Source: Ruminococcus albus 7 = DSM 20455
Lineage (GTDB): Bacteria; Bacillota; Clostridia; Oscillospirales; Ruminococcaceae
Reading direction: 5' to 3'
Length of the DNA: 32,000 nt
Assembly (NCBI RefSeq): GCF_000179635.2
Contig: NC_014833.1
Coordinates: forward strand, 270,001-302,000
Shown here: in pieces, positions 2,745 to 15,655 of the stretch
How the letters are laid out: each line of letters starts with the position of its first letter
Position numbering within the stretch: position 1 is the first letter of the stretch
Program-made: the position numbers and the translations under genes
Notes under the pieces: generated by a model
What the model saw: the letters and a program-made list of their open reading frames with translations, nothing else
The model's database searches: none
What the model was told of the DNA's origin: nothing

Positions 2745-3785
2745 ATGAATAATAACAGCTATTCAAACAGCTACAAGGAAGCAGGCGTGGACGTTACAGC
2801 CGGCTACAAGGCAGTAGAGCTTATGAAGCAGTACGTAGGCAGAACGGTCACAAAAGGCGTAATCGACGGCATAGGCGGCTTCGGCGGACTTTTTGAGCTG
2901 GACATGACAGGCATAAACAAGCCTGTACTGGTGTCGGGCACTGACGGCGTAGGCACTAAGATCAAGATCGCTTTCCTGCTGGACAAGCATGACACTGTGG
3001 GCATAGATTGTGTTGCCATGTGTGTCAATGATATAATCTGCTGCGGTGCAAAGCCTCAGTTCTTCCTGGACTATATTGCCTGCGGAAGAAATATCCCCGA
3101 GAAGATCGCAAGCATAGTTTCGGGCGTGGCCGAGGGCTGCGTTCAGGCAGGATGCGCTCTGGTAGGCGGTGAGACTGCAGAACATCCGGGTCTTATGCCG
3201 GAGGAAGAGTACGATCTTGCAGGTTTCTCCGTGGGTGTTGTTGACAAGGACAAGATACTTGATCCCACCACACAGAAGGCAGGAGATGTGATGATCGCTA
3301 TAAAGTCAAGCGGTGTACACTCCAATGGTTTCTCACTGGTTAGAAAGGTATTCGATGTAAACGAGGAGAACCTTGCAAAGCACTATGACGAGCTGGGCAC
3401 CACACTGGGTGAGGCACTGCTGACACCTACACGCATCTACGTAAAGGCTATAATGAGCCTGCTTGATGCTGTAAAGGTAAAGAGCATATCCCACATAACA
3501 GGCGGCGGATTCTACGAGAATATCCCGAGATCACTGCCCAAGGGCATATCAGCTCAGATCAAGAGAAGCGATGTTCAGGTACTGCCTATATTCGACCTTA
3601 TCGCAAAGACAGGCAATATCCCCGAGAGAGATATGTTCAACACCTTCAACATGGGCGTTGGTATGACTGTTGTTGTTGACAAGGCTGATGCTGATGCAGC
3701 TATCGCGGCTATAAAGGCTGCAGGCGAGGACGCTTATGTTCTCGGTGAGCTGGTAGACAGCGATATGGGCGTTATCATCTGCTGA
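2745..3785 (+). CDS. purM: AIR synthase (phosphoribosylformylglycinamidine cyclo-ligase)
   Basis: 346-aa ORF with an AAAGGAAG ribosome-binding site. PurM blocks [25 protein letters not shown] and ITGGG are present. Confidence 0.95.
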
Positions 3786-3874: not shown

Positions 3875-4438
3875 ATGAAGTACAGGATATTCGGGAACGG
3901 AGATAAAGATACTATACTTCTGCTCCACGGCGGCGGGCTATCTCTTGGGGGACAGGTCGCTCTGGAAATGCTGGCACAGCGCGGAGATATCTGCGAAAAT
4001 GCAGTGATAGAGAGCGCGCTTGTTATACCCTCAAAGGTGACAGCGGCGCTTCTGCCGTCGTCACTGAAAATGAGTTACGGTCTGATACAAAAAGAGTGGT
4101 TCGCAAGAAAGCAGTTTGCGGCACTCAGGATACCCGAAGAATTTTTTGAGGATTATTTCCGCGACACCAAGGAGATAACTCTGAAAAATATGACAGCTTT
4201 TCTCACGGCAAATCAGCAGTATGAACTGAAAAGCTCTGTGAAAGATACTTCTGCGCGGGTGTATGTTTTTGCAGGCGGAAAAGAAATAAAGTCGGTAAAA
4301 CGATCGGCGGAGATGATAAACAAAGCCGTTAAGGGCAGCAGCATTGAGGTGCTTGACGGAATGTATCACGGAGAATTCTCAATGAAGTATGCGGAGCGGT
4401 ATGCTGATAAGATCATTGATATCTGCGGAGGAAAATGA
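3875..4438 (+). CDS. Alpha/beta-hydrolase-fold protein, apparently internally deleted (possible gene remnant)
   Basis: 187-aa ORF with an AGAGGA ribosome-binding site. The N-terminus has ILLLHGGG (oxyanion motif) running directly into GLSLGGQ (GxSxG nucleophile elbow). A C-terminal GMYHGEF could supply the catalytic His. Confidence 0.6.
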   Translation: MKYRIFGNGDKDTILLLHGGGLSLGGQVALEMLAQRGDICENAVIESALVIPSKVTAALLPSSLKMSYGLIQKEWFARKQFAALRIPEEFFEDYFRDTKEITLKNMTAFLTANQQYELKSSVKDTSARVYVFAGGKEIKSVKRSAEMINKAVKGSSIEVLDGMYHGEFSMKYAERYADKIIDICGGK

Positions 4439-4890
4439 TGTTGGACAAACTTGACGATAAGGTTATCGGATTTCTGATAAGGGCGAAGAAAGCCACTTAT
4501 GCGGGCAAGGGCGCGGAAAGCGCAAGCAGCCGTCCGAAATCCCATGATTTGAAGTACAGCGAGGATGGGCTTACTTACATAGACACTTATCTAGGCGGCG
4601 AGAGATTTGCGGGCGAGGAAGCTTTATGGCGTGACGGCGAACCATTCTGGTCGATGAATTATGTCGGCAGAGTGACAGGCGAGAATTTCAGCGGAGATTT
4701 TCTGAAAGAGGCGCTGTTAAGAGTTCCTGCGGATAAGCCATTCAGAGGACCTGCGCGTTATGAGGACGGCGGATATGTATACGAATGCGAGGTAAGCGGT
4801 GACACCTGCTGGTTTTATGGGCATGAGATAATATCATTGAATGGTGTGCAGATATATGAATGTCTGTTCCACGGCGGAAGCATAAAGTAA
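4435..4890 (+). CDS. DUF5680-like protein (family assignment from memory)
   Basis: 151-aa ORF whose ATG overlaps the upstream stop (ATGATG at 4435-4440), with GGAGGA upstream. Blocks KKATYAGKG, DTYLGGERFAGEE, WSMNYVGRV and YECLFHGG match my recollection of DUF5680. Confidence 0.55.
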   Translation: MMLDKLDDKVIGFLIRAKKATYAGKGAESASSRPKSHDLKYSEDGLTYIDTYLGGERFAGEEALWRDGEPFWSMNYVGRVTGENFSGDFLKEALLRVPADKPFRGPARYEDGGYVYECEVSGDTCWFYGHEIISLNGVQIYECLFHGGSIK

Positions 4891-4900
4891 GGAGGGCATT

Positions 4901-5392
4901 ATGCCGTTTACAAAGATAAAGAAAAGGCTTGAGACGGAGTTTCTTGCGCCCTCATTGCAGGGGCGTGTGACATACTTTGCCACCTCATACAGCAAATATC
5001 CCGACCATGAGGGGCGTGCGGCAATACGTGTTGACGGTGTTGAGGTCTTCAAGAGCGACTATTTTGAACTCATGATGCTGCATTCACAGAAATACCATGA
5101 GCAGGAAGAAAGCGGCGCGGGGCTTCACAAAAGCTGGATGCAGGCATTTGATGAAGCCGAAAAAGCTGGCGGATTTGACCATCATGCATTTTACCGCGCA
5201 TTTGATATGTTTGCTTCACAGCCGATTGAGGAGAGCCTGAAAAGCGAGTATCCGCTTGTCAGGATATTTGCGATACTCGACAGGCGGACGGGTAAGCGCA
5301 GACTTTCTGCTATGGCTGAGGAAATGGAGAGCGCACCGCCTTTTATACAGATATTTTACAAGCTGAGATGCGAAGCGGAGGGCTTATCGTGA
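4901..5392 (+). CDS. Hypothetical protein (163 aa)
   Basis: AAGGAGG lies 6 nt upstream of the ATG. The composition is protein-like. I cannot assign a family confidently. Confidence 0.6.
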   Translation: MPFTKIKKRLETEFLAPSLQGRVTYFATSYSKYPDHEGRAAIRVDGVEVFKSDYFELMMLHSQKYHEQEESGAGLHKSWMQAFDEAEKAGGFDHHAFYRAFDMFASQPIEESLKSEYPLVRIFAILDRRTGKRRLSAMAEEMESAPPFIQIFYKLRCEAEGLS

Positions 5393-5898
5393 GAGAATTC
5401 GACAACAGGAAGTCGCTGAAGACATTCTGGCACAGGCACGGACATCAGCTTGCAGGACTTATCGTGCTGGCGGGAGTATTGACAATTGGCTATATCGGTT
5501 ATCGTGAAAGTCACCCAAAGGCGGTCAGTGTTGATGATATCAACTCGGAGATGCCAACTTATAAGGAGACGCTTGGCATTGATAAACTAAAGCTGAGTTA
5601 TGATATCAAGGTCGATGGCTTTGACGGAGAGATGTTCCTGTACAGCGTTTACTTTGAAAATCCCCCCACAGATGAAGATATCAGTGCGGTGGAAGAGTGT
5701 ATGGATAAACTCCCGCAGGATGACGAAAATACATATCACGGCGATGTTATGGTCTTTGCAGATGAACCCGACAAAGTAACGGTGATGCTCGATCTCGGAA
5801 ATGCAGATGATGAACAGTATATAACCGAAATCCCGAAAGCACTGGACGGTATGAAAGGCATTAAAAAGGTAGTTTTAAACGAAGGTGCGGAATACTAA
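5389..5898 (+). CDS. Hypothetical N-terminally membrane-anchored protein
   Basis: The track ORF is 5368..5898. I prefer the GTG at 5389 because GGAGG (5377-5381) sits 7 nt upstream and GTGA overlaps the upstream stop. There is one hydrophobic helix (LAGLIVLAGVLTIGYIGY) followed by an acidic soluble domain. Confidence 0.55.
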   Translation: MREFDNRKSLKTFWHRHGHQLAGLIVLAGVLTIGYIGYRESHPKAVSVDDINSEMPTYKETLGIDKLKLSYDIKVDGFDGEMFLYSVYFENPPTDEDISAVEECMDKLPQDDENTYHGDVMVFADEPDKVTVMLDLGNADDEQYITEIPKALDGMKGIKKVVLNEGAEY

Positions 5899-5918: not shown

Positions 5919-6545
5919 ATGAAAAATATAGTTGTACTGGTCTCGGGCGGCGGGACTAATTTGCAGGCGCTGATAGACGCTCAGGCACGCGGAGAGATAA
6001 AGGGCGGAAAGATAAGCTGTGTAATATCCTCAAAAGAGGGCGCATATGCCCTTGAAAGAGCGGCTAAGGCAGGTATACCCTCAGTGGTGCTGCCAAGAAA
6101 GGAGTATGCTGACAAAAAGGCATACAGTCAGGCTATACTGGAAGAACTGAACAGACAGAAAGCCGACCTTGTTGTGCTGGCAGGATTCATGATAATCCTT
6201 GACGAAGTAGTTACAAAAGCCTACCCCTATAAGATAATCAACGTTCATCCCGCACTGATACCCTCTTTCTGCGGTGAGGGCTACTATGGTCTGAAAGTTC
6301 ATGAAAAGGCTCTGGAATACGGTGTTAAGATCAGCGGCGCGACTATCCACTTTGTAAATGAAGAAGCAGACGCAGGTGCGATAATCCTTCAGGGCGCTGT
6401 GGATATCGCCAACGATGAAACTCCCGAAACTCTGCAAAAGAAGATAATGGAAAACGTGGAGTGGAAGCTTCTGCCCAAGGCAGTTTCGCTGTTCTGTGAG
6501 GACAGGATAACTATCCGTGACGGCAAGGCATATATTGATCTGTAA
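5919..6545 (+). CDS. purN: GAR formyltransferase (phosphoribosylglycinamide formyltransferase)
   Basis: 208-aa ORF with PurN blocks VLVSGGGTNLQAL, NVHPALIP and GATIHFVNEEADAG. Confidence 0.93.
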   Translation: MKNIVVLVSGGGTNLQALIDAQARGEIKGGKISCVISSKEGAYALERAAKAGIPSVVLPRKEYADKKAYSQAILEELNRQKADLVVLAGFMIILDEVVTKAYPYKIINVHPALIPSFCGEGYYGLKVHEKALEYGVKISGATIHFVNEEADAGAIILQGAVDIANDETPETLQKKIMENVEWKLLPKAVSLFCEDRITIRDGKAYIDL

Positions 6546-6546
6546 T

Positions 6547-6878
6547 AAAAAGGGACTGCTTAAGGGCAGTACTCATACGGAAGTTTTATGTTATCTATTG
6601 GGGAAAACCCTTTTGAAAAAGGGTTATTCCTAAGCGTCAGCTTCGCTGATGCTGACCCCTTTCCGAAAACTTCTATTTCTTTTGGGCAGGGGGTAGCTAT
6701 GTTTGCAAACATAGCTACCCCCTGTCTTTTTCTGTCTTTATAAAAAACTACCCCCTGCCCAAAAGAGTTAAAAGTCTTTTGAAAGGGGTTCGGGGGATAA
6801 CTTTTCTTCAGAAAAGTTTCCCCCGATAAATAATATAAGCTTCTATATGGACACTGCCCTTAAGCAGTCCCCTTTTTT
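6547..6878. repeat. Nested inverted-repeat (MITE/BIME-like) element between convergent purN and purD
   Basis: An exact 19-nt inverted match joins 6552-6570 (GGGACTGCTTAAGGGCAGT) and 6853-6871, flanked by an A-run on the left and a T-run on the right. The arms can be aligned over about 130-150 nt. Internal hairpins lie at 6606-6625, 6636-6656 and 6792-6824. A perfect 38-bp palindrome spans 6687-6724. Confidence 0.8.
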
Positions 6879-6890
6879 ATGTGGATATCA

Positions 6891-8246
6891 TCACTGACGC
6901 AGATATACGCCGTTTTCTTCGATGTAATCTTCCATATCGTCTTTATATCCCAGGTGCAGAGGGTCACTGTCGAGTGCCTTTAATGCACGCTGACCGATGT
7001 CCTTACGGAAGTGTGCGCCCTCGAAGGTGATCTTTTCAACACCCTGGTATGCCTTTTCAAGAGCGGAGTTGAGGGTAAGACCCTTTGCGGTAACACCGAG
7101 GACACGTCCGCCGCTGGTGAGAAACTTGCCGTCAGCAAGCTTTGTACCTGCGTGGAAGACCTGAGCACCGTCAACCTGACCCTTGGCGTCAAGACCCTTG
7201 ATCTCAATGCCCTTGGGGTAAGAGAGGGGATATCCGCCGCTTGCCATGATAACACAAGCGCAGCTGCCCTCTGCCCACTCAACGTTGAGTTCGCTCAGCT
7301 TGTGATCGTATATGGCTTCCATTATGTCAACGAGATCCGTTTTCAGCATAGGCAGAACTACCTGTGTCTCGGGATCACCGAAACGGCAGTTGTACTCGAT
7401 GACCTTTGGTCCTTTGGGGGTAAGCATAAGTCCGAAATACAGACAGCCTTCAAATGTCCTGCCCTCGGCATTCATGGCATTTATAGTAGGCAGGAATATC
7501 TTCTCCATGCACTCCTCAGCTATGCTGTTTGTGTAGTAGGGGTTGGGAGATATAGTACCCATTCCGCCTGTGTTAAGACCTTCATCATTGTCAAGTGCTC
7601 TCTTGTGATCCATGGAGGATATCATGGGAACTACAGTCTTGCCGTCTGTGAAGCTGAGTACAGAAACCTCGGGACCTGTCAGATACTCTTCAACGACGAT
7701 AGTCGAACTGCTGTCACCGAACTTCTTATCATCTATCATTTCCTTGATAGCTGTTACAGCTTCTTCCTCGTTCTGCGCAAGTATAACGCCCTTGCCCAGT
7801 GCAAGACCGTCAGCCTTGATAACAGCAGGATAGGTGTTCTGCTGCTTAACGTAAGCTATGGCAGATTCACTGTCCTTGAACACCTCATAGCCTGCGGTAG
7901 GGATATTGTATTTTTTCATCAGGTCCTTGGAGAATACCTTTGAACCCTCGATTATAGCTGCAGCCTTCTTGGGTCCGAAGGTCTTGAAGCCCTCAGCCTG
8001 CAAAGCATCGACCATGCCCAGTACCAGCGGATCATCGGGTGCTACAACAACAAGATCGACAGCCAGTTTTTTTGCAAGTGCAACAACACCGTCAATATCT
8101 GTTGCACCAACGTCAAAGCACTCTGCCATAGCAGAGATGCCGCCGTTTCCCGGGGTGCAGTATATCTTTTCTGCTTTCGGAGACTGTGCGAGTTTTGCGA
8201 TGATCGCGTGTTCACGTCCGCCGCCGCCGACTACAAGTATTTTCAT
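6891..8246 (-). CDS. purD: GAR synthetase (phosphoribosylamine--glycine ligase)
   Basis: 451-aa ORF starting MKILVVGGGGREHA, with ATP-grasp blocks and an AAGGAG ribosome-binding site. The C-terminal tail after FRKDIGQRA looks longer than usual. Confidence 0.95.
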   Translation of the reverse strand: MKILVVGGGGREHAIIAKLAQSPKAEKIYCTPGNGGISAMAECFDVGATDIDGVVALAKKLAVDLVVVAPDDPLVLGMVDALQAEGFKTFGPKKAAAIIEGSKVFSKDLMKKYNIPTAGYEVFKDSESAIAYVKQQNTYPAVIKADGLALGKGVILAQNEEEAVTAIKEMIDDKKFGDSSSTIVVEEYLTGPEVSVLSFTDGKTVVPMISSMDHKRALDNDEGLNTGGMGTISPNPYYTNSIAEECMEKIFLPTINAMNAEGRTFEGCLYFGLMLTPKGPKVIEYNCRFGDPETQVVLPMLKTDLVDIMEAIYDHKLSELNVEWAEGSCACVIMASGGYPLSYPKGIEIKGLDAKGQVDGAQVFHAGTKLADGKFLTSGGRVLGVTAKGLTLNSALEKAYQGVEKITFEGAHFRKDIGQRALKALDSDPLHLGYKDDMEDYIEENGVYLRQ

Positions 8247-9323: not shown

Positions 9324-10109
9324 CTATTCAAAATTTACTGACCACAGCAGATCACGCAGATCGCTGTCGATTGATTCCACACTTGTTTCAGTTATGGTGA
9401 AACAGATATTAAGCTCTCTGTATCCATTGAAACCTGTGTATTGTAAAAGTCTTGATTCGGCTCCGAAAAGTGTCGGATCAATTGTATATTCCCTACGTAT
9501 CCAGGTCTTGCCGTTGATATCTACGGTGTTATGGTCTATCAGTGTCTGTCCCGTGGGAGGGGCATCATTTTCCCAATAATGCTGTGCTACTTCATTGATG
9601 TCATACTGTGATAAATCAGTAGAAAGCTCATTTGAAGCAAACACACAGGTCGAACTGTAATCACCCATCCATCCGTAAATATATTCTATGCCCTCAGTTC
9701 CTTCAGCTGCGTTTATGGAAACGTGTTCTTTTGCATCCATCCATTTAGAAAGATCAACGTCAAATCCGTAGCCTGTGCCGCTTATGTGCTCTATCCTTAC
9801 CTCTGCAGGTTCGGGCTTTTCGACGGCGGAAGTTTCGGCTGCTGAACTATCCGCGGCAGGTTTGCTTTCAGCTGTGGGAGGTGTTTCCGTTACAGAACTT
9901 TCTTCTTCGGGCTTGCTTTCCTCGGTGATACTGCTTTCTTCGGGTGCTGAGCTTTCTTCGGCAGCACTTATCTCTTCCGACGAAGTTTCAGCTTTACGGC
10001 TCATATCCTTCTTCACGGCACTTACCTCCGAAGTTTTTACGGAGGCTTTGCCGCATGAAGTCAGCAGCACTGCTGACAGCAGCGCCGCTAATATAACTCT
10101 CTTATCCAT
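9324..10109 (-). CDS. Lipoprotein with an S/E/P-rich linker and a C-terminal globular domain
   Basis: The N-terminus is [19 protein letters not shown]|GK (lipobox). The ATG shares one nucleotide with the purH stop (TGATG, 10107-10111). Confidence 0.8.
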   Translation of the reverse strand: MDKRVILAALLSAVLLTSCGKASVKTSEVSAVKKDMSRKAETSSEEISAAEESSAPEESSITEESKPEEESSVTETPPTAESKPAADSSAAETSAVEKPEPAEVRIEHISGTGYGFDVDLSKWMDAKEHVSINAAEGTEGIEYIYGWMGDYSSTCVFASNELSTDLSQYDINEVAQHYWENDAPPTGQTLIDHNTVDINGKTWIRREYTIDPTLFGAESRLLQYTGFNGYRELNICFTITETSVESIDSDLRDLLWSVNFE

Positions 10110-11290
10110 CAGTGGTGGAAGAGTCTGATACCTGTGAATGCCATAGCCATTCCGTACTTGTTGCAGGTGTCTATAACATTGTCGTCACGGATAGATCCGC
10201 CGGGCTCTGCGATATAAGCCACACCTGACTTCTTGGCTCTTTCGATGTTATCGCCGAAGGGGAAGAATGCATCGGAACCAAGACATACATCGGTATTTTT
10301 AGCCAGCCATTCCTTCTTCTCCTCGCGGGTCAGAGGCTCGGGCTTGGTCTTGAATATTCTCTGCCACTCGCCTTCAGCCAGAACGTCCTCATACTCCTCA
10401 CCGATGTATACGTCGATAGCGTTGTCACGGTCAGGTCTGCGTATATCGTCCTTGAAGGGCAGAGCCATTACCTTGGGGTTCTGTCTGAGCCACCAGTTGT
10501 CAGCCTTGCTGCCTGCAAGTCTTGTGCAGTGTACTCTTGACTGCTGACCTGCACCGATACCGATAGCCTGTCCGTTCTTGACATAGCATACAGAGTTTGA
10601 TTGTGTATACTTCAGTGTTATCAGCGAGATGATAAGATCTTCCAGCTTGTCATCGGGGATATCCTTATTCTCGGTAACAACGTTGGAAAGCAGCTCCTTG
10701 TCGATCTTCAGCTCGTTTCTGCCCTGTTCAAATGTAACACCGAATACCTGCTTGCGCTCGATCTCAGCGGGAACATAGTTCTCGTCGATCTTGATGATAT
10801 TGTATGTACCCTTTCTCTTGGACTTGAGTATCTCCAGAGCTTCATCGGTATAGCCGGGAGCGATAACGCCGTCGGATACCTCTCTCTGTATCATCTTGGC
10901 AGTAGGAACATCACATACATCGGACAGTGCGATGAAATCGCCGTAGCTGGACATTCTGTCTGCACCTCTTGCCCTTGCATAAGCGCAAGCCAGTGAAGAA
11001 AGCTCGCCCAGATCGTCAACGAAGTATATCTTAGCCTCAGTCTCTGTCAGGGGTCTGCCGATAGCGGCACCTGCGGGAGATACGTGCTTGAAAGAAGTTG
11101 CAGCGCACATACCGGTAGCAGCTTTCAGCTCCTTTACCAGCTGCCAGCCGTTGAAAGCGTCCAGCAGGTTGATATAGCCGGGCTTGCCGTTGAGCACTTC
11201 GATAGGAAGATCCTTACCATCCTCCATATATACTCTTGACGGCTTCTGATTGGGGTTGCAGCCGTACTTCAAAAGCATCTCGTTTGCCAT
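10109..11290 (-). CDS. purH: AICAR formyltransferase, stand-alone AICARFT domain (no MGS-like IMP cyclohydrolase domain)
   Basis: 393-aa ORF with a GGAGGT ribosome-binding site. Blocks KYGCNPNQ and [11 protein letters not shown] are present. It is about 130 aa shorter at the N-terminus than bifunctional PurH. Confidence 0.9.
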
Positions 11291-13322: not shown

Positions 13323-13727
13323 TCAGTCCAGATCGAAGCTTTTTTCGCAGTCATCAGTCACAAGTATCACCTTTTCACCCTCGATCCTGCCGCTTATAAT
13401 GTGGTTCCCATTGATGAAACGGAAATACTCCATGTGTTCCTCAAGCGTTTTATGCTCGGGTACCAGCAAAGGCATAGGTTCTGCACGCGAACCCTGAAAA
13501 GCTATACATTCACAGTTTGTATATACGCTCTGGATCAATCCGCGGACAGTACCTTTGTTAGCGGGGTCGGTAAACTTCTCATAAAGCTCTCTGCCGATGT
13601 CATACAGCTCGGTCATCTGGGTGCTTCCAATCTTGCCTGCAAAGACATATCGTCCGTCCTCTGTCATGCCGAGTGTATAACCGTTTCCCGGAGCGATCGA
13701 GAAGTATCTGATCATCTGCCGTGCCAT
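13323..13727 (-). CDS. Hypothetical protein (134 aa)
   Basis: The ATG shares one nucleotide with the purO stop (TAATG, 13725-13729). The composition is balanced. No family was recognised. Confidence 0.6.
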   Translation of the reverse strand: MARQMIRYFSIAPGNGYTLGMTEDGRYVFAGKIGSTQMTELYDIGRELYEKFTDPANKGTVRGLIQSVYTNCECIAFQGSRAEPMPLLVPEHKTLEEHMEYFRFINGNHIISGRIEGEKVILVTDDCEKSFDLD

Positions 13728-14443
13728 TACTTTGTGTATTTGTTAACTATCTTCGATACAGCCTTGCCTGTTTCTATGTCGATGAATCTTACGAACAGGG
13801 ATACCTTGTTATCCTCGTTCAGCGCATTCCACAGACCATTTGTGAATTCATCGATATCATTGGGGATAGTTATCTTCTTGGGCTCACCTTCAAAGCTGGG
13901 CAGAGGGTTGCCGTCACCCATATATGTGTGGATGAAATGACCGTAGCCGGCTATGGGAGTTGAATAGCTGAAAGTGAATCTCTCAACACTGTCGGGGTTG
14001 CCGTCAGCGGATTTCAGTATGCTCATAGCATAGTTGTACTGACCGTCGCCAACGTGCATGATTCCGGAAATTCTGGGTGTGTAGTTGGGAGCATCGTCCT
14101 CATATTCTCTTGTGCGCAGGCTCTGTTCAAAGGTCTGCTGCTTGTCCATCAGCTCATAGATCGTATCTGTCTGATCGCCGTTGGTAACGATGGTCTTGTT
14201 TCCAAGAACTCTGACAGGTGAGTATATTATCAGATGAGGATCGGAAAGCTTTGAAGGATCAGCAGCCTCGGTCTTGATGCCGTCAGCAGTTTCGGTGAAT
14301 ACTCTGTTTCTGGAATTTACGCTTCTGCCCATGATGAAATAAGCAGTAACAGCGTTCTTTCCGTCAGCACTCTTGCCGATAACGATACCTCTTCCGGGGT
14401 AAGCGTTGCCTTTCAGTTCCTCATAAATGTCAAGTGTTTTCAT
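13727..14443 (-). CDS. purO: IMP cyclohydrolase, archaeal PurO-type
   Basis: Blocks YPGRGIVIGKS and YFIMGRSVNSRNR are typical of the PurO-type IMP cyclohydrolase family. I prefer the ATG at 14443 (AAGGAGG 8 nt upstream) to the track start at 14479. Confidence 0.85.
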   Translation of the reverse strand: MKTLDIYEELKGNAYPGRGIVIGKSADGKNAVTAYFIMGRSVNSRNRVFTETADGIKTEAADPSKLSDPHLIIYSPVRVLGNKTIVTNGDQTDTIYELMDKQQTFEQSLRTREYEDDAPNYTPRISGIMHVGDGQYNYAMSILKSADGNPDSVERFTFSYSTPIAGYGHFIHTYMGDGNPLPSFEGEPKKITIPNDIDEFTNGLWNALNEDNKVSLFVRFIDIETGKAVSKIVNKYTK

Positions 14444-15401
14444 ATTTTTGACCTCCTTGATCGGGTTTAGGTTTGCCATTGAACTTTACTTCAATGGTAT
14501 TTGTCAGTTTTTTTATAATATTTTTTGTCAGCTGAAAAACAGCCTCGTAAATTCTCATAACGATCCTGAGCATCAGCTCGAAGCATATCACTATCGCCAG
14601 ATTCAGCAGAGGGAAAAGAATAAACGGGACGATAAGTCTATCGAGGATAATATCCGATGCTGAATACAAGCAATAAACTTTTACATAGATACCGTAAAAA
14701 AAGCCTATCAGAAATTGTGTTGATTTGTATATGGGCATTGTTATGCCCAGTAGCATATTGTATATACTAATCAGGATCGCTCGAAGCCAGATGGATTGAT
14801 AGATCGACCACCTAACCATAGGTGCAAATATCACAAATATCAATCTTGTGGCTGCACCTATAGAAAAGAACGCGATGTAGTCAGCCAATACCTCCGCAAA
14901 GATATTCTCCGTGCGGTAGTATAGCAGCCTGAATCCCTTCTTTTTTGGCTCGCCAAGTTCAACCCTGTCTTTTTCCTTTTTGAACAGCCTTTTGCAGACA
15001 AATGTCTTGATCAACATTATCAACGGAAATGTAACTGCCAATATATCAGTGGCATAGTCCATCAGGACTTCGTCATAGCACACAACTAGATCTTCCACAC
15101 CGAAAGTTGTGATCTTCATCAGAAGTTTTATAATATAACCATTATGAGGTCGTTCAAAGTGATATATCTCATCGTACATGACTGCCAAATACTGATCCTG
15201 CGCTGAATTTATACTAAAGGGGCAGTTTTCTTCCATGTGTTCCACAAAGGTATCGCCAATGTCGTAAGGACTGGATGACCACGGATTGGCAAAAGTGCCT
15301 ATCAGCAGACAAAGCAAATATATCCCTATAAGTATAAGATACTTTTTCTTCTTAGGCTTAGGCGATATCCCCGATAGCATATTATTTGATTTTTCGTTCA
15401 T
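14430..15401 (-). CDS. Hypothetical polytopic membrane protein (323 aa), first gene of the purO transcription unit
   Basis: Long ORF with several hydrophobic helices. It is visibly AT-richer than its neighbours. Its 3' end overlaps the purO start by 14 nt. No family was recognised. Confidence 0.65.
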   Translation of the reverse strand: MNEKSNNMLSGISPKPKKKKYLILIGIYLLCLLIGTFANPWSSSPYDIGDTFVEHMEENCPFSINSAQDQYLAVMYDEIYHFERPHNGYIIKLLMKITTFGVEDLVVCYDEVLMDYATDILAVTFPLIMLIKTFVCKRLFKKEKDRVELGEPKKKGFRLLYYRTENIFAEVLADYIAFFSIGAATRLIFVIFAPMVRWSIYQSIWLRAILISIYNMLLGITMPIYKSTQFLIGFFYGIYVKVYCLYSASDIILDRLIVPFILFPLLNLAIVICFELMLRIVMRIYEAVFQLTKNIIKKLTNTIEVKFNGKPKPDQGGQKYENT

Positions 15402-15584: not shown

Positions 15585-15626
15585 CCAAAACAGCCATAAA
15601 GAGGTCAGCTGATCTCTTTATGGCTG
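15585..15626 (-). terminator. Rho-independent terminator of pta
   Basis: A 13-bp perfect stem joins CAGCCATAAAGAG (15591-15603) and CTCTTTATGGCTG (15614-15626), with a 10-nt loop. On the minus strand it is followed by TTTTGG. Confidence 0.8.
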
Positions 15627-15655
15627 TGGATAGTTATGGTATTATTGCTTCGTTA

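Follow-up and report, generated by a model that had tools for sequence, protein, structure and literature searches.

The convergent genes purN and purD of Ruminococcus albus 7 (DSM 20455) are separated by an unusually structured intergenic region, which lies in the 32,000-nucleotide stretch of contig NC_014833.1 analysed here (assembly GCF_000179635.2, positions 270,001 to 302,000; hereafter the window, whose numbering is used for all coordinates unless a contig is named). Our analysis indicates that this region is probably one copy of a foldback repeat without coding capacity, approx. 300–365 bp in length, carried by R. albus-type genomes and similar to MITEs (miniature inverted-repeat transposable elements), that would have inserted in the loop of a transcription terminator and would flip recurrently. 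It probably represents a new family of MITE-like foldback repeats, the unusual traits of which would be precisely the insertion in terminator loops and the flipping in place.

The genes purN (5919–6545, + strand; TIGR00639, 203 bits) and purD (6891–8246, − strand; TIGR00877, 541.7 bits) flank the region on the left and on the right respectively, and both were identified with NCBIfam equivalog models; 345 bp separate their stop codons. This gap is occupied by an imperfect palindrome of approx. 330 bp (6547–6878), in which the outer arms (6547–6586 and 6837–6876) show 83% complementarity, the inner arms (6655–6711 and 6733–6789) 77%, and a stretch of 38 nt (6687–6724) is a perfect palindrome. 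The 19-nt sequence GGGACTGCTTAAGGGCAGT is found exactly twice in the window, at 6552–6570 (+) and inverted at 6853–6871 (−), an arrangement that was not obtained in any of 100 shuffles; outside these inverted ends there is a run of five A on the left and of six T on the right. The predicted RNA fold of 6540–6895 reaches −176.3 kcal/mol for the + strand and −177.0 kcal/mol for the − strand, far below the mean of shuffled sequences of approx. −87 kcal/mol (z scores of −16.8 and −14.9). The original prediction, made by a model from the letters alone, had described most of this organization, i.e., a large palindrome filling the gap, arms that can be aligned inward, an A-run and a T-run beyond the ends, one G-rich hairpin per arm, an extra hairpin in the left arm, and no open reading frame (ORF) of 60 residues or more. 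Coordinates, complementarity and fold all agree with it; the G-rich hairpins are located at 6600–6630 and 6791–6825, the extra hairpin at 6631–6654, where it turned out to be a strain-variable indel, and the longest ORFs of the element have 50 and 51 residues. The 19-nt repeat, which had been taken as the terminus, is an exact inverted match but not the end of the element: it consists of 8 locus-specific nucleotides and 11 that belong to the element, and within it TTAAGGGCAGT is common to the other copies and GGGACTGC is specific to purN/purD.

The other copies were detected through an ORF of 50 residues (6560–6712, − strand) that is annotated in R. albus 7 as the hypothetical protein ADU20823.1. 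As a protein query this ORF matched four clusters, all from R. albus-type sources, and the R. albus 7 chromosome (3,685,408 bp) has three such ORFs, ADU20823.1, ADU22772.1 and ADU23349.1. The C-terminal tails of these ORFs differ, in line with their continuing into different flanks. A real small protein was considered and rejected, given that the only homologues of the 50- and 51-residue ORFs are other copies of the element, with divergent tails; a 20-nt indel described below also disrupts the 50-residue ORF. Complete copies are present in contig L114, at the junction of a GH26-dockerin gene and a gene of 528 codons, and in contig L115, found with the second ORF, at the junction of a gene encoding 336 residues and a leuD-like aconitase-C gene; like the copy of purN/purD, each is at the 3' ends of convergent genes. 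Further copies adjoin the 3' ends of two other genes, one for a Na/Ala symporter (L113) and one for a DHHW protein (L014), and a single metagenome-assembled genome (MAG), GCA_024689805.1, has copies on three contigs, i.e., L002/L018 (purN/purD), L113 and L115. The interior of the element is 97–99% identical across four loci with unrelated flanks, and with nhmmer, E-values between 1e-67 and 1e-88 were obtained for the other copies. When approx. 750 kb of sequence that included 80 Oscillospiraceae purD regions was searched with nhmmer, only R. albus-type contigs were matched, and the conserved motifs were likewise confined to the element. In contigs L110–L112, a gene whose DHHW product does not differ from that of L014 is followed, approx. 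100 nt past its stop, by a left-arm copy of approx. 75% identity; this copy belongs to a diverged subfamily with the end TTAAGGCGGGT, and all three contigs stop inside it.

These copies bear directly on the proposal that the region is an elaborate bidirectional terminator, a structured 3' untranslated region (UTR) or a small RNA (sRNA) that evolved in place at purN/purD. The extremely stable fold of both strands, the terminator-like hairpins and the compensatory changes in one of the internal hairpins (see below) would fit such an origin; nevertheless, the same 300 bp are found almost unchanged at unrelated junctions, close relatives lack the element at the 3' end of purD, and no Rfam family reaches its threshold, so that we consider this explanation highly improbable. 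The sRNA alternative of the original prediction gains no support from a sequence that is a dispersed repeat and matches no Rfam family. In turn, the concern raised there that the feature could be single-copy and sit at the same junction in all relatives was dispelled by near-identical interiors at unrelated junctions and by relatives without the full element.

The nearest named genomes are those of Ruminococcus albus 8 and of one Ruminococcus MAG, both with 91% PurD identity, while PurD and PurN of the window are also encoded on GCA_000621285.1 (contig JHYT01000003.1), as well as on numerous contigs from rumen metagenomes. No full element was found 3' of purD in relatives with 86–95% PurD identity; there, purD is followed by plain hairpin-plus-T terminators and the downstream gene differs in each lineage. 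In R. albus 8, a stretch of approx. 29 nt downstream of purD (L023 4390–4419), TTAAGTACGGTACGCATAAAGAAGTTTTA, is similar to the left end of the element (z score 4.6; 0 of 200 shuffles) and may be the remnant of an old copy; a similar stretch of L022 was not significant. A local inverted duplication of the 3' region of purD was also considered as the origin of the palindrome, and it was dropped after the other copies were found, the possible remnant in R. albus 8 being weak. The exact 19-mer gave no match in 185,579 species genomes nor in IMG/VR, and in the JGI metagenomes it matched the purN/purD locus and, by chance, one other contig (L012); the first impression of a single-copy feature given by these scans was misleading, since 8 of the 19 nt are locus-specific. 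Neither phage nor plasmid collections yielded a match to the element with blastn, and two further viral scans with internal motifs gave one chance match only (L116). Across the whole window no Rfam model matched, either at its gathering score or at an E-value threshold; in a permissive scan the best score was 36.9 bits, against a required 78, and corresponded to generic long-hairpin models. Full-text literature searches returned no description of a MITE or of an invertible element (inverton) in R. albus.

Alignment of the copies defines the element proper as 298 bp (6563–6860) that form an asymmetric foldback, with a left arm (6563–6696), a centre, and a right arm (6748–6860), and with terminal inverted repeats AGGGCAGT...ACTGCCCT. 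Similarity between copies ends abruptly at TA|AGGGCAGT...ACTGCCCT|TA; there is near-identity inside, and similarity is lost beyond T(T/A)AAGGGCAGT at one end and beyond ACTGCCCTTA at the opposite end. In the window, the left TA (6561–6562) and the right TA (6861–6862), which abuts ACTGCCCT, could be the two counterparts of a target-site duplication. A TA adjoins AGGGCAGT or ACTGCCCT at all the ends seen except the DHHW-side end of L014/L016, where the T of ACTGCCCT is absent (CCCTATGGG) and the reading assumes a deletion of 1 nt. The four nucleotides outside the ends vary among copies (TTAA, ATAA, TTAC, TTAT), and TTAA is not kept on both sides.

Immediately outside these boundaries, the 8–12 nt that flank the element are different in every copy, yet complementary within each copy. 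To the left, the sequence of the window is unrelated to that of the other copies (GGCGGTCC, AGCACTTGC, GTCTGACACCC), each of which pairs with its own far side. The outer stems are GGGACTGC / GCAGTCCC at purN/purD, GGCGGTCC / GGACCGCC in L114, AAGCACTTGC / GTGAGTGCTT in L115, where two G·U pairs make the stem valid on one strand only, and GTCTGACACCC / GGGTGTCAGAC for the DHHW and symporter ends; in each complete copy the stem is bracketed by an A-tract, a T-tract, or both. At purN/purD, the presumed original bidirectional terminator would be represented on the + strand by a left half at 6547–6559 (A-tract 6547–6551, stem half GGGACTGC 6552–6559) and a right half at 6864–6878 (stem half GCAGTCCC 6864–6871, T-tract 6873–6878); the stem halves are complementary, and each has a T-run behind it, T6 for the right half (+ strand) and T5 for the left half (− strand). 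When the element and one TA were deleted in silico, the four reconstructed sites yielded hairpins of −15 to −25 kcal/mol with loops of 4–6 nt and T-tracts. Three of them are bidirectional and the fourth is one-directional, its convergent gene having a terminator of its own; the empty site of purN/purD folds as a terminator of −17.5 / −20.1 kcal/mol. Stems that were part of the element would need a divergence of more than 50% next to an interior that is 97–99% identical, which is implausible, and they are therefore better explained as host stems; from this, we infer that terminator loops are the target of the element, which would enter them at a TA. The features of an intrinsic bidirectional terminator, i.e., the stem halves, the A5 and T6 tracts, and a central hairpin with a T-rich tail, are present at the sequence level.

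A second property, that had not been foreseen in the original prediction, is that the element of purN/purD is seen in both directions. Four independent metagenome contigs carry it inverted and eight contigs, the isolate among them, forward. The most complete inverted case is L017, a scaffold of 142 kb that spans purN, the element and purD, in which the whole interior is reverse-complemented; this interior is the exact reverse complement of that of L016, save for one A in an A-run. The other inverted contigs are L019, which covers the purN side, and L004 and L005, which cover the purD side. Forward L016 and inverted L019 show no difference over the adjacent 1,335 nt, in a region where other pairs of haplotypes differ at 14–25 sites in purN alone. 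On the purD side (1,100 nt), inverted L017 has 5 differences with forward L003 but 17–18 with L004 and L005, which are also inverted, so that the inverted state is found on at least three flank haplotypes. Inverted copies occur with (L004) and without (L017, L019) a 20-nt mini-hairpin, and the same is true for the forward state. Both orientations are found in assemblies that bear one and the same BioSample label. The inverted contigs L004, L005 and L017 (BioSample SAMN02144231) have seven T in the purD-side tract, versus six in the window (6873–6878). Given that orientation is independent of the flanks and of the indel, recurrent flips are called for, and inversion in place through the 19-nt inverted ends appears as the simplest reading of the two orientations.

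Two other explanations of these orientations were weighed. According to the first, the multicopy element is real, and its two orientations reflect independent insertions, or excision with subsequent re-insertion, at the same loop TA, or else an artefact of assembly or library at the inverted repeat. The four reconstructed sites imply a very narrow target, a TA in a terminator loop, which makes repeated insertion plausible, and the numerous contigs that break inside the element show that assemblers struggle with it. However, the element is present at all the purN/purD junctions seen in this species, with no empty allele; L016 and L019 have opposite orientations on identical flanks; L017 covers the whole inverted element inside a long scaffold; and an exact repeat of 19 nt is shorter than the k that assemblers use at present (k141 in the case of L016). 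We regard this explanation as unlikely. The second proposes a programmed inverton, in which a site-specific recombinase encoded elsewhere would flip the segment between the 19-nt repeats and redirect the central one-way terminator, with a change in the 3' ends of purN or purD; a single global invertase would act on all the dispersed copies. This is in agreement with a precise inversion bounded by inverted repeats on several haplotypes, with a dyad core in the repeat, ACTGC-TTAAGG-GCAGT, that resembles a recombinase site, and with a terminator as the internal directional element, as in the Clostridioides difficile cwpV switch (PMC2784873). On the other hand, no recombinase was detected in Pfam and NCBIfam scans of the main ORFs of the window, whose matches were to purine-synthesis and other housekeeping genes; the dyad is mostly host terminator stem, different at each copy, with no common core beyond TAAGGGCAGT; the location at the 3' ends of convergent genes, with outward terminators at both fixed ends, predicts little regulatory effect; and dispersion of almost identical copies among unrelated flanks is typical of a repeat element and not of a switch. 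A programmed inverton is for these reasons improbable.

The mechanism we propose for the MITE-like foldback repeat can be summarized as follows. The element would insert in an intrinsic terminator, at a TA of the hairpin loop; at purN/purD, this would have been the bidirectional terminator AAAAAGGGACTGC-TTAA-GCAGTCCCCTTTTTT. In the transcript, the foldback of the element would bring the halves of the terminator stem together again ahead of the U-tract, so that termination would be kept and the insertion tolerated; in addition, the element would bring a strong one-directional terminator-like hairpin of its own at its centre. Flipping would most likely proceed by recombination or by replication template-switching between the inverted ends, which share 19 identical nt, excision followed by re-insertion being a less likely route. 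As deduced from the sequence, transcripts of purN reach the central hairpin first in the orientation of the window and those of purD in the flipped one, so that a flip would exchange the gene whose transcript meets the central terminator first. Finally, copies at different loci could recombine and rearrange the chromosome. In a more ambitious version, the element would actively home to terminator loops and flip at a high rate, being a dispersed phase-variable 3'-end module and not a passive repeat; we see this version as rather unlikely. If it were true, a population would be mixed as to which of the two convergent genes stops at the strong internal terminator and which bears a structured 3' UTR of 300 nt.

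Several points weigh against the proposed mechanism. Empty sites were recovered for none of the loci (plasmid searches with the flanks of L114 and L115 returned none), and insertion into a pre-existing terminator is a reconstruction; likewise, the terminator function of the stems and of the central hairpin is a prediction only. The flanking TA is palindromic, and hence a target-site duplication is indistinguishable from an extension of the inverted repeat. Orientation states were read from assemblies and not from sequencing reads; misassembly at the 19-nt repeat may account for them, although it is unlikely with a large k, and independent insertions in opposite orientation into one TA could mimic flipping. 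A transposase with matching ends was found neither in the window nor next to the copies, and no whole-genome search was made for it; in particular, none lies beside the copies of L014, L113, L114 and L115, and L014 has no recombinase beside its copy either. The copy number seen is low, at least three per genome, and was detected solely through miscalled ORFs, and the DHHW/symporter locus was pieced together from two contigs.

With respect to the interior, each arm contains a subterminal hairpin (hairpin 1), at 6600–6630 in the left arm (GGGGAA-AACCCTTTT-GA-AAAAGGGTT-A-TTCC) and at 6791–6825 in the right arm (CGGGGG-A-AACTTTTCT-..-AGAAAAGTT-T-CCCCCG). Across six arms that represent three sequence types, all 15 pairs of this hairpin are kept (100%); five of them have changes in both partners, and none of 500 shuffles attains the score observed. 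The hairpin of the right arm repeats the architecture of the left one, with four doubly compensated pairs. This conservation could be due to selection, for instance for transposase binding or for RNA structure, or alternatively to templated correction within quasi-palindromes. Next to the left hairpin 1, at 6631–6654, the window has 24 nt that form a mini-hairpin (stem 6634–6641 / 6645–6652), also carried by L002, L004, L113, L114 and L115, where L016, L017, L019 and L020 have CCAA instead. In L115, the right arm has a hairpin insertion of its own of approx. 35 nt (approx. 3165–3205, CAAAGGC-AAA-GCCTTTG), which together with the left-arm indel indicates that both arms can gain unrelated mini-hairpins. 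The centre (6684–6737) comprises a hairpin of 20 bp and a T-rich tail that a terminator scan identified as terminator-like on the + strand only. The 13-mer GGGCAGGGGGTAG occurs at 6684–6696 (+), at 6715–6727 (−, with 2 mismatches) and at 6748–6760 (−), and with these three occurrences two alternative central hairpins are possible; its start is similar to the element end GGGCAGT, a hint that an older structure, nested or duplicated, may underlie the centre.

Recombination between copies is suggested by contig L014/L016 (ENA ERZ1756109 k141_3512902), in which the element (L016 2128–2441) links purN to a DHHW/ALGX gene and not to purD. The stem at the DHHW-side end is of the same type as that of the symporter copy (L113), which points to two copies of the element having recombined and thereby rearranged the chromosome. 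An integrated island in L014 was considered and rejected, given that the element is followed on its right by genes of the housekeeping type (DHHW, NUDIX, YfhO, a sigma factor and Mfd). A considerable group of contigs starts or stops inside the element (L003–L006, L013, L019–L021 and L110–L113), which fits a palindromic, multicopy region possibly of mixed orientation. The breaks are often located at the GGGCAGGGGGTAG repeats or at the central palindrome, and L006 continues into Illumina adapter sequence.

The element offers an explanation for the repeated breaks of metagenome assemblies at purN/purD in this rumen species, as well as for small "hypothetical proteins" of R. albus genomes, which are ORFs miscalled inside the repeat; as a substrate for recombination, it would also account for chromosomal rearrangements between strains. 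If homing to terminators is confirmed, it would be a clear case of a bacterial non-coding element that survives where its own fold repairs the damage of its insertion, useful for thinking on the co-evolution of repeats and terminators. If the flips occur within clones, the 3' ends of genes would join the sites of heterogeneity generated by inversion.

Other features were noted elsewhere in the window. Between purM and purN (3875–5898) there are four small ORFs of unknown function, one of them with a DUF5680 match and another with an SF0329 match; the ORF content of this interval (L016/L018 1069–1482) is strain-variable, with an extra ORF of 137 residues in some strains and, in some, an ORF of 191 residues that replaces two others. 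A purF-like ORF (1281–2702) scores 193.9 bits against TIGR01134, whose cut-off is 350 bits, and may be a divergent amidophosphoribosyltransferase. The functions of purH appear to be split between a gene for an AICARFT/IMPCHase-family protein (10109–11290), whose match is limited to positions 76–311 of the Pfam model, and a separate, nearby PF07826 IMP cyclohydrolase-like gene (13727–14479). Lastly, the gap beside pta contains a near-perfect palindrome (95%) of 38 nt (15590–15627), the sequence of which is unrelated to the element.

Regarding its class, the original prediction had placed the region among MITE, BIME (bacterial interspersed mosaic element) or PATE (palindrome-associated transposable element) types. 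The MITE-like part of this assignment stood, given that the element is multicopy, has 298 bp without coding capacity, terminal inverted repeats, and near-identical copies at unrelated loci. The BIME part did not, given that its unit is a 298-bp asymmetric foldback and not the 20–40 nt of REP (repetitive extragenic palindrome), BIME or REPIN sequences. A PATE was neither shown nor excluded: PATEs derived from IS200/IS605 have subterminal hairpins, lack terminal inverted repeats, and insert 3' of a fixed tetra- or pentanucleotide with no duplication, whereas the element combines conserved subterminal hairpins with genuine inverted repeats at its ends, and the 4 nt beyond these are variable. As in an inverton, a segment bounded by inverted repeats is found in both orientations, with a precise reverse complement. 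Correia/NEMIS elements of Neisseria are small dispersed non-coding repeats with TA-flanked inverted ends. RUP of Streptococcus pneumoniae is a MITE thought to be mobilized by IS630-Spn1 (PMC3049150). As RUP and Correia elements, the R. albus repeat is small, non-coding, dispersed, intergenic downstream of genes, and ends in terminal inverted repeats with TA at both sides; folding of its transcript is also predicted to pair both ends. In contrast with RUP, it is three times longer and is a palindrome over almost its full length with distinct left and right arms, and a cognate insertion sequence (IS) was not found in the window or next to the copies. It differs from both RUP and Correia elements in that complete copies lie between the halves of terminator hairpins and in that both orientations are found at one and the same site.

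The C. difficile cwpV switch is an invertible segment that acts through a terminator (PMC2784873; PMC5386303). The R. albus element is similar in the short inverted repeats that bound the segment, in the two orientations, and in the directional terminator predicted inside; however, cwpV is a single-copy switch in a 5' leader flipped by RecV, whereas the element is dispersed at the 3' ends of genes with no evident on/off output. SPRITE and REP/BIME sequences are palindromic repeats, dispersed in the genome with a preference for gene 3' ends, and with a predicted role as terminators or as substitutes for them (PMC3049150; PMC3333891; PMC2817692; PMC3184786). The element shares with them its palindromic nature and location, but they have a terminator-like stem of their own, and the basal stem of the element is apparently supplied by the host and different at each copy; moreover, the typical traits of REP, i.e., 20–40 nt, hundreds of copies and linkage to RAYT transposases, were not seen for the element. 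With regard to the target, class C group II introns insert after terminators and Tn7 in the glmS terminator. IS1397 and ISKpn1 target the loops of REP sequences and ISPpu9/10 also target REPs, and insertion in extragenic palindromes limits the damage to the host (PMC1525189; PMC8450116). In a similar way, judging from the four reconstructed sites, insertion of the R. albus element is apparently aimed at an extragenic palindrome or terminator; the REP-homing ISs, the group II introns and Tn7 are, nevertheless, autonomous and protein-coding, whereas this element is a non-coding foldback.

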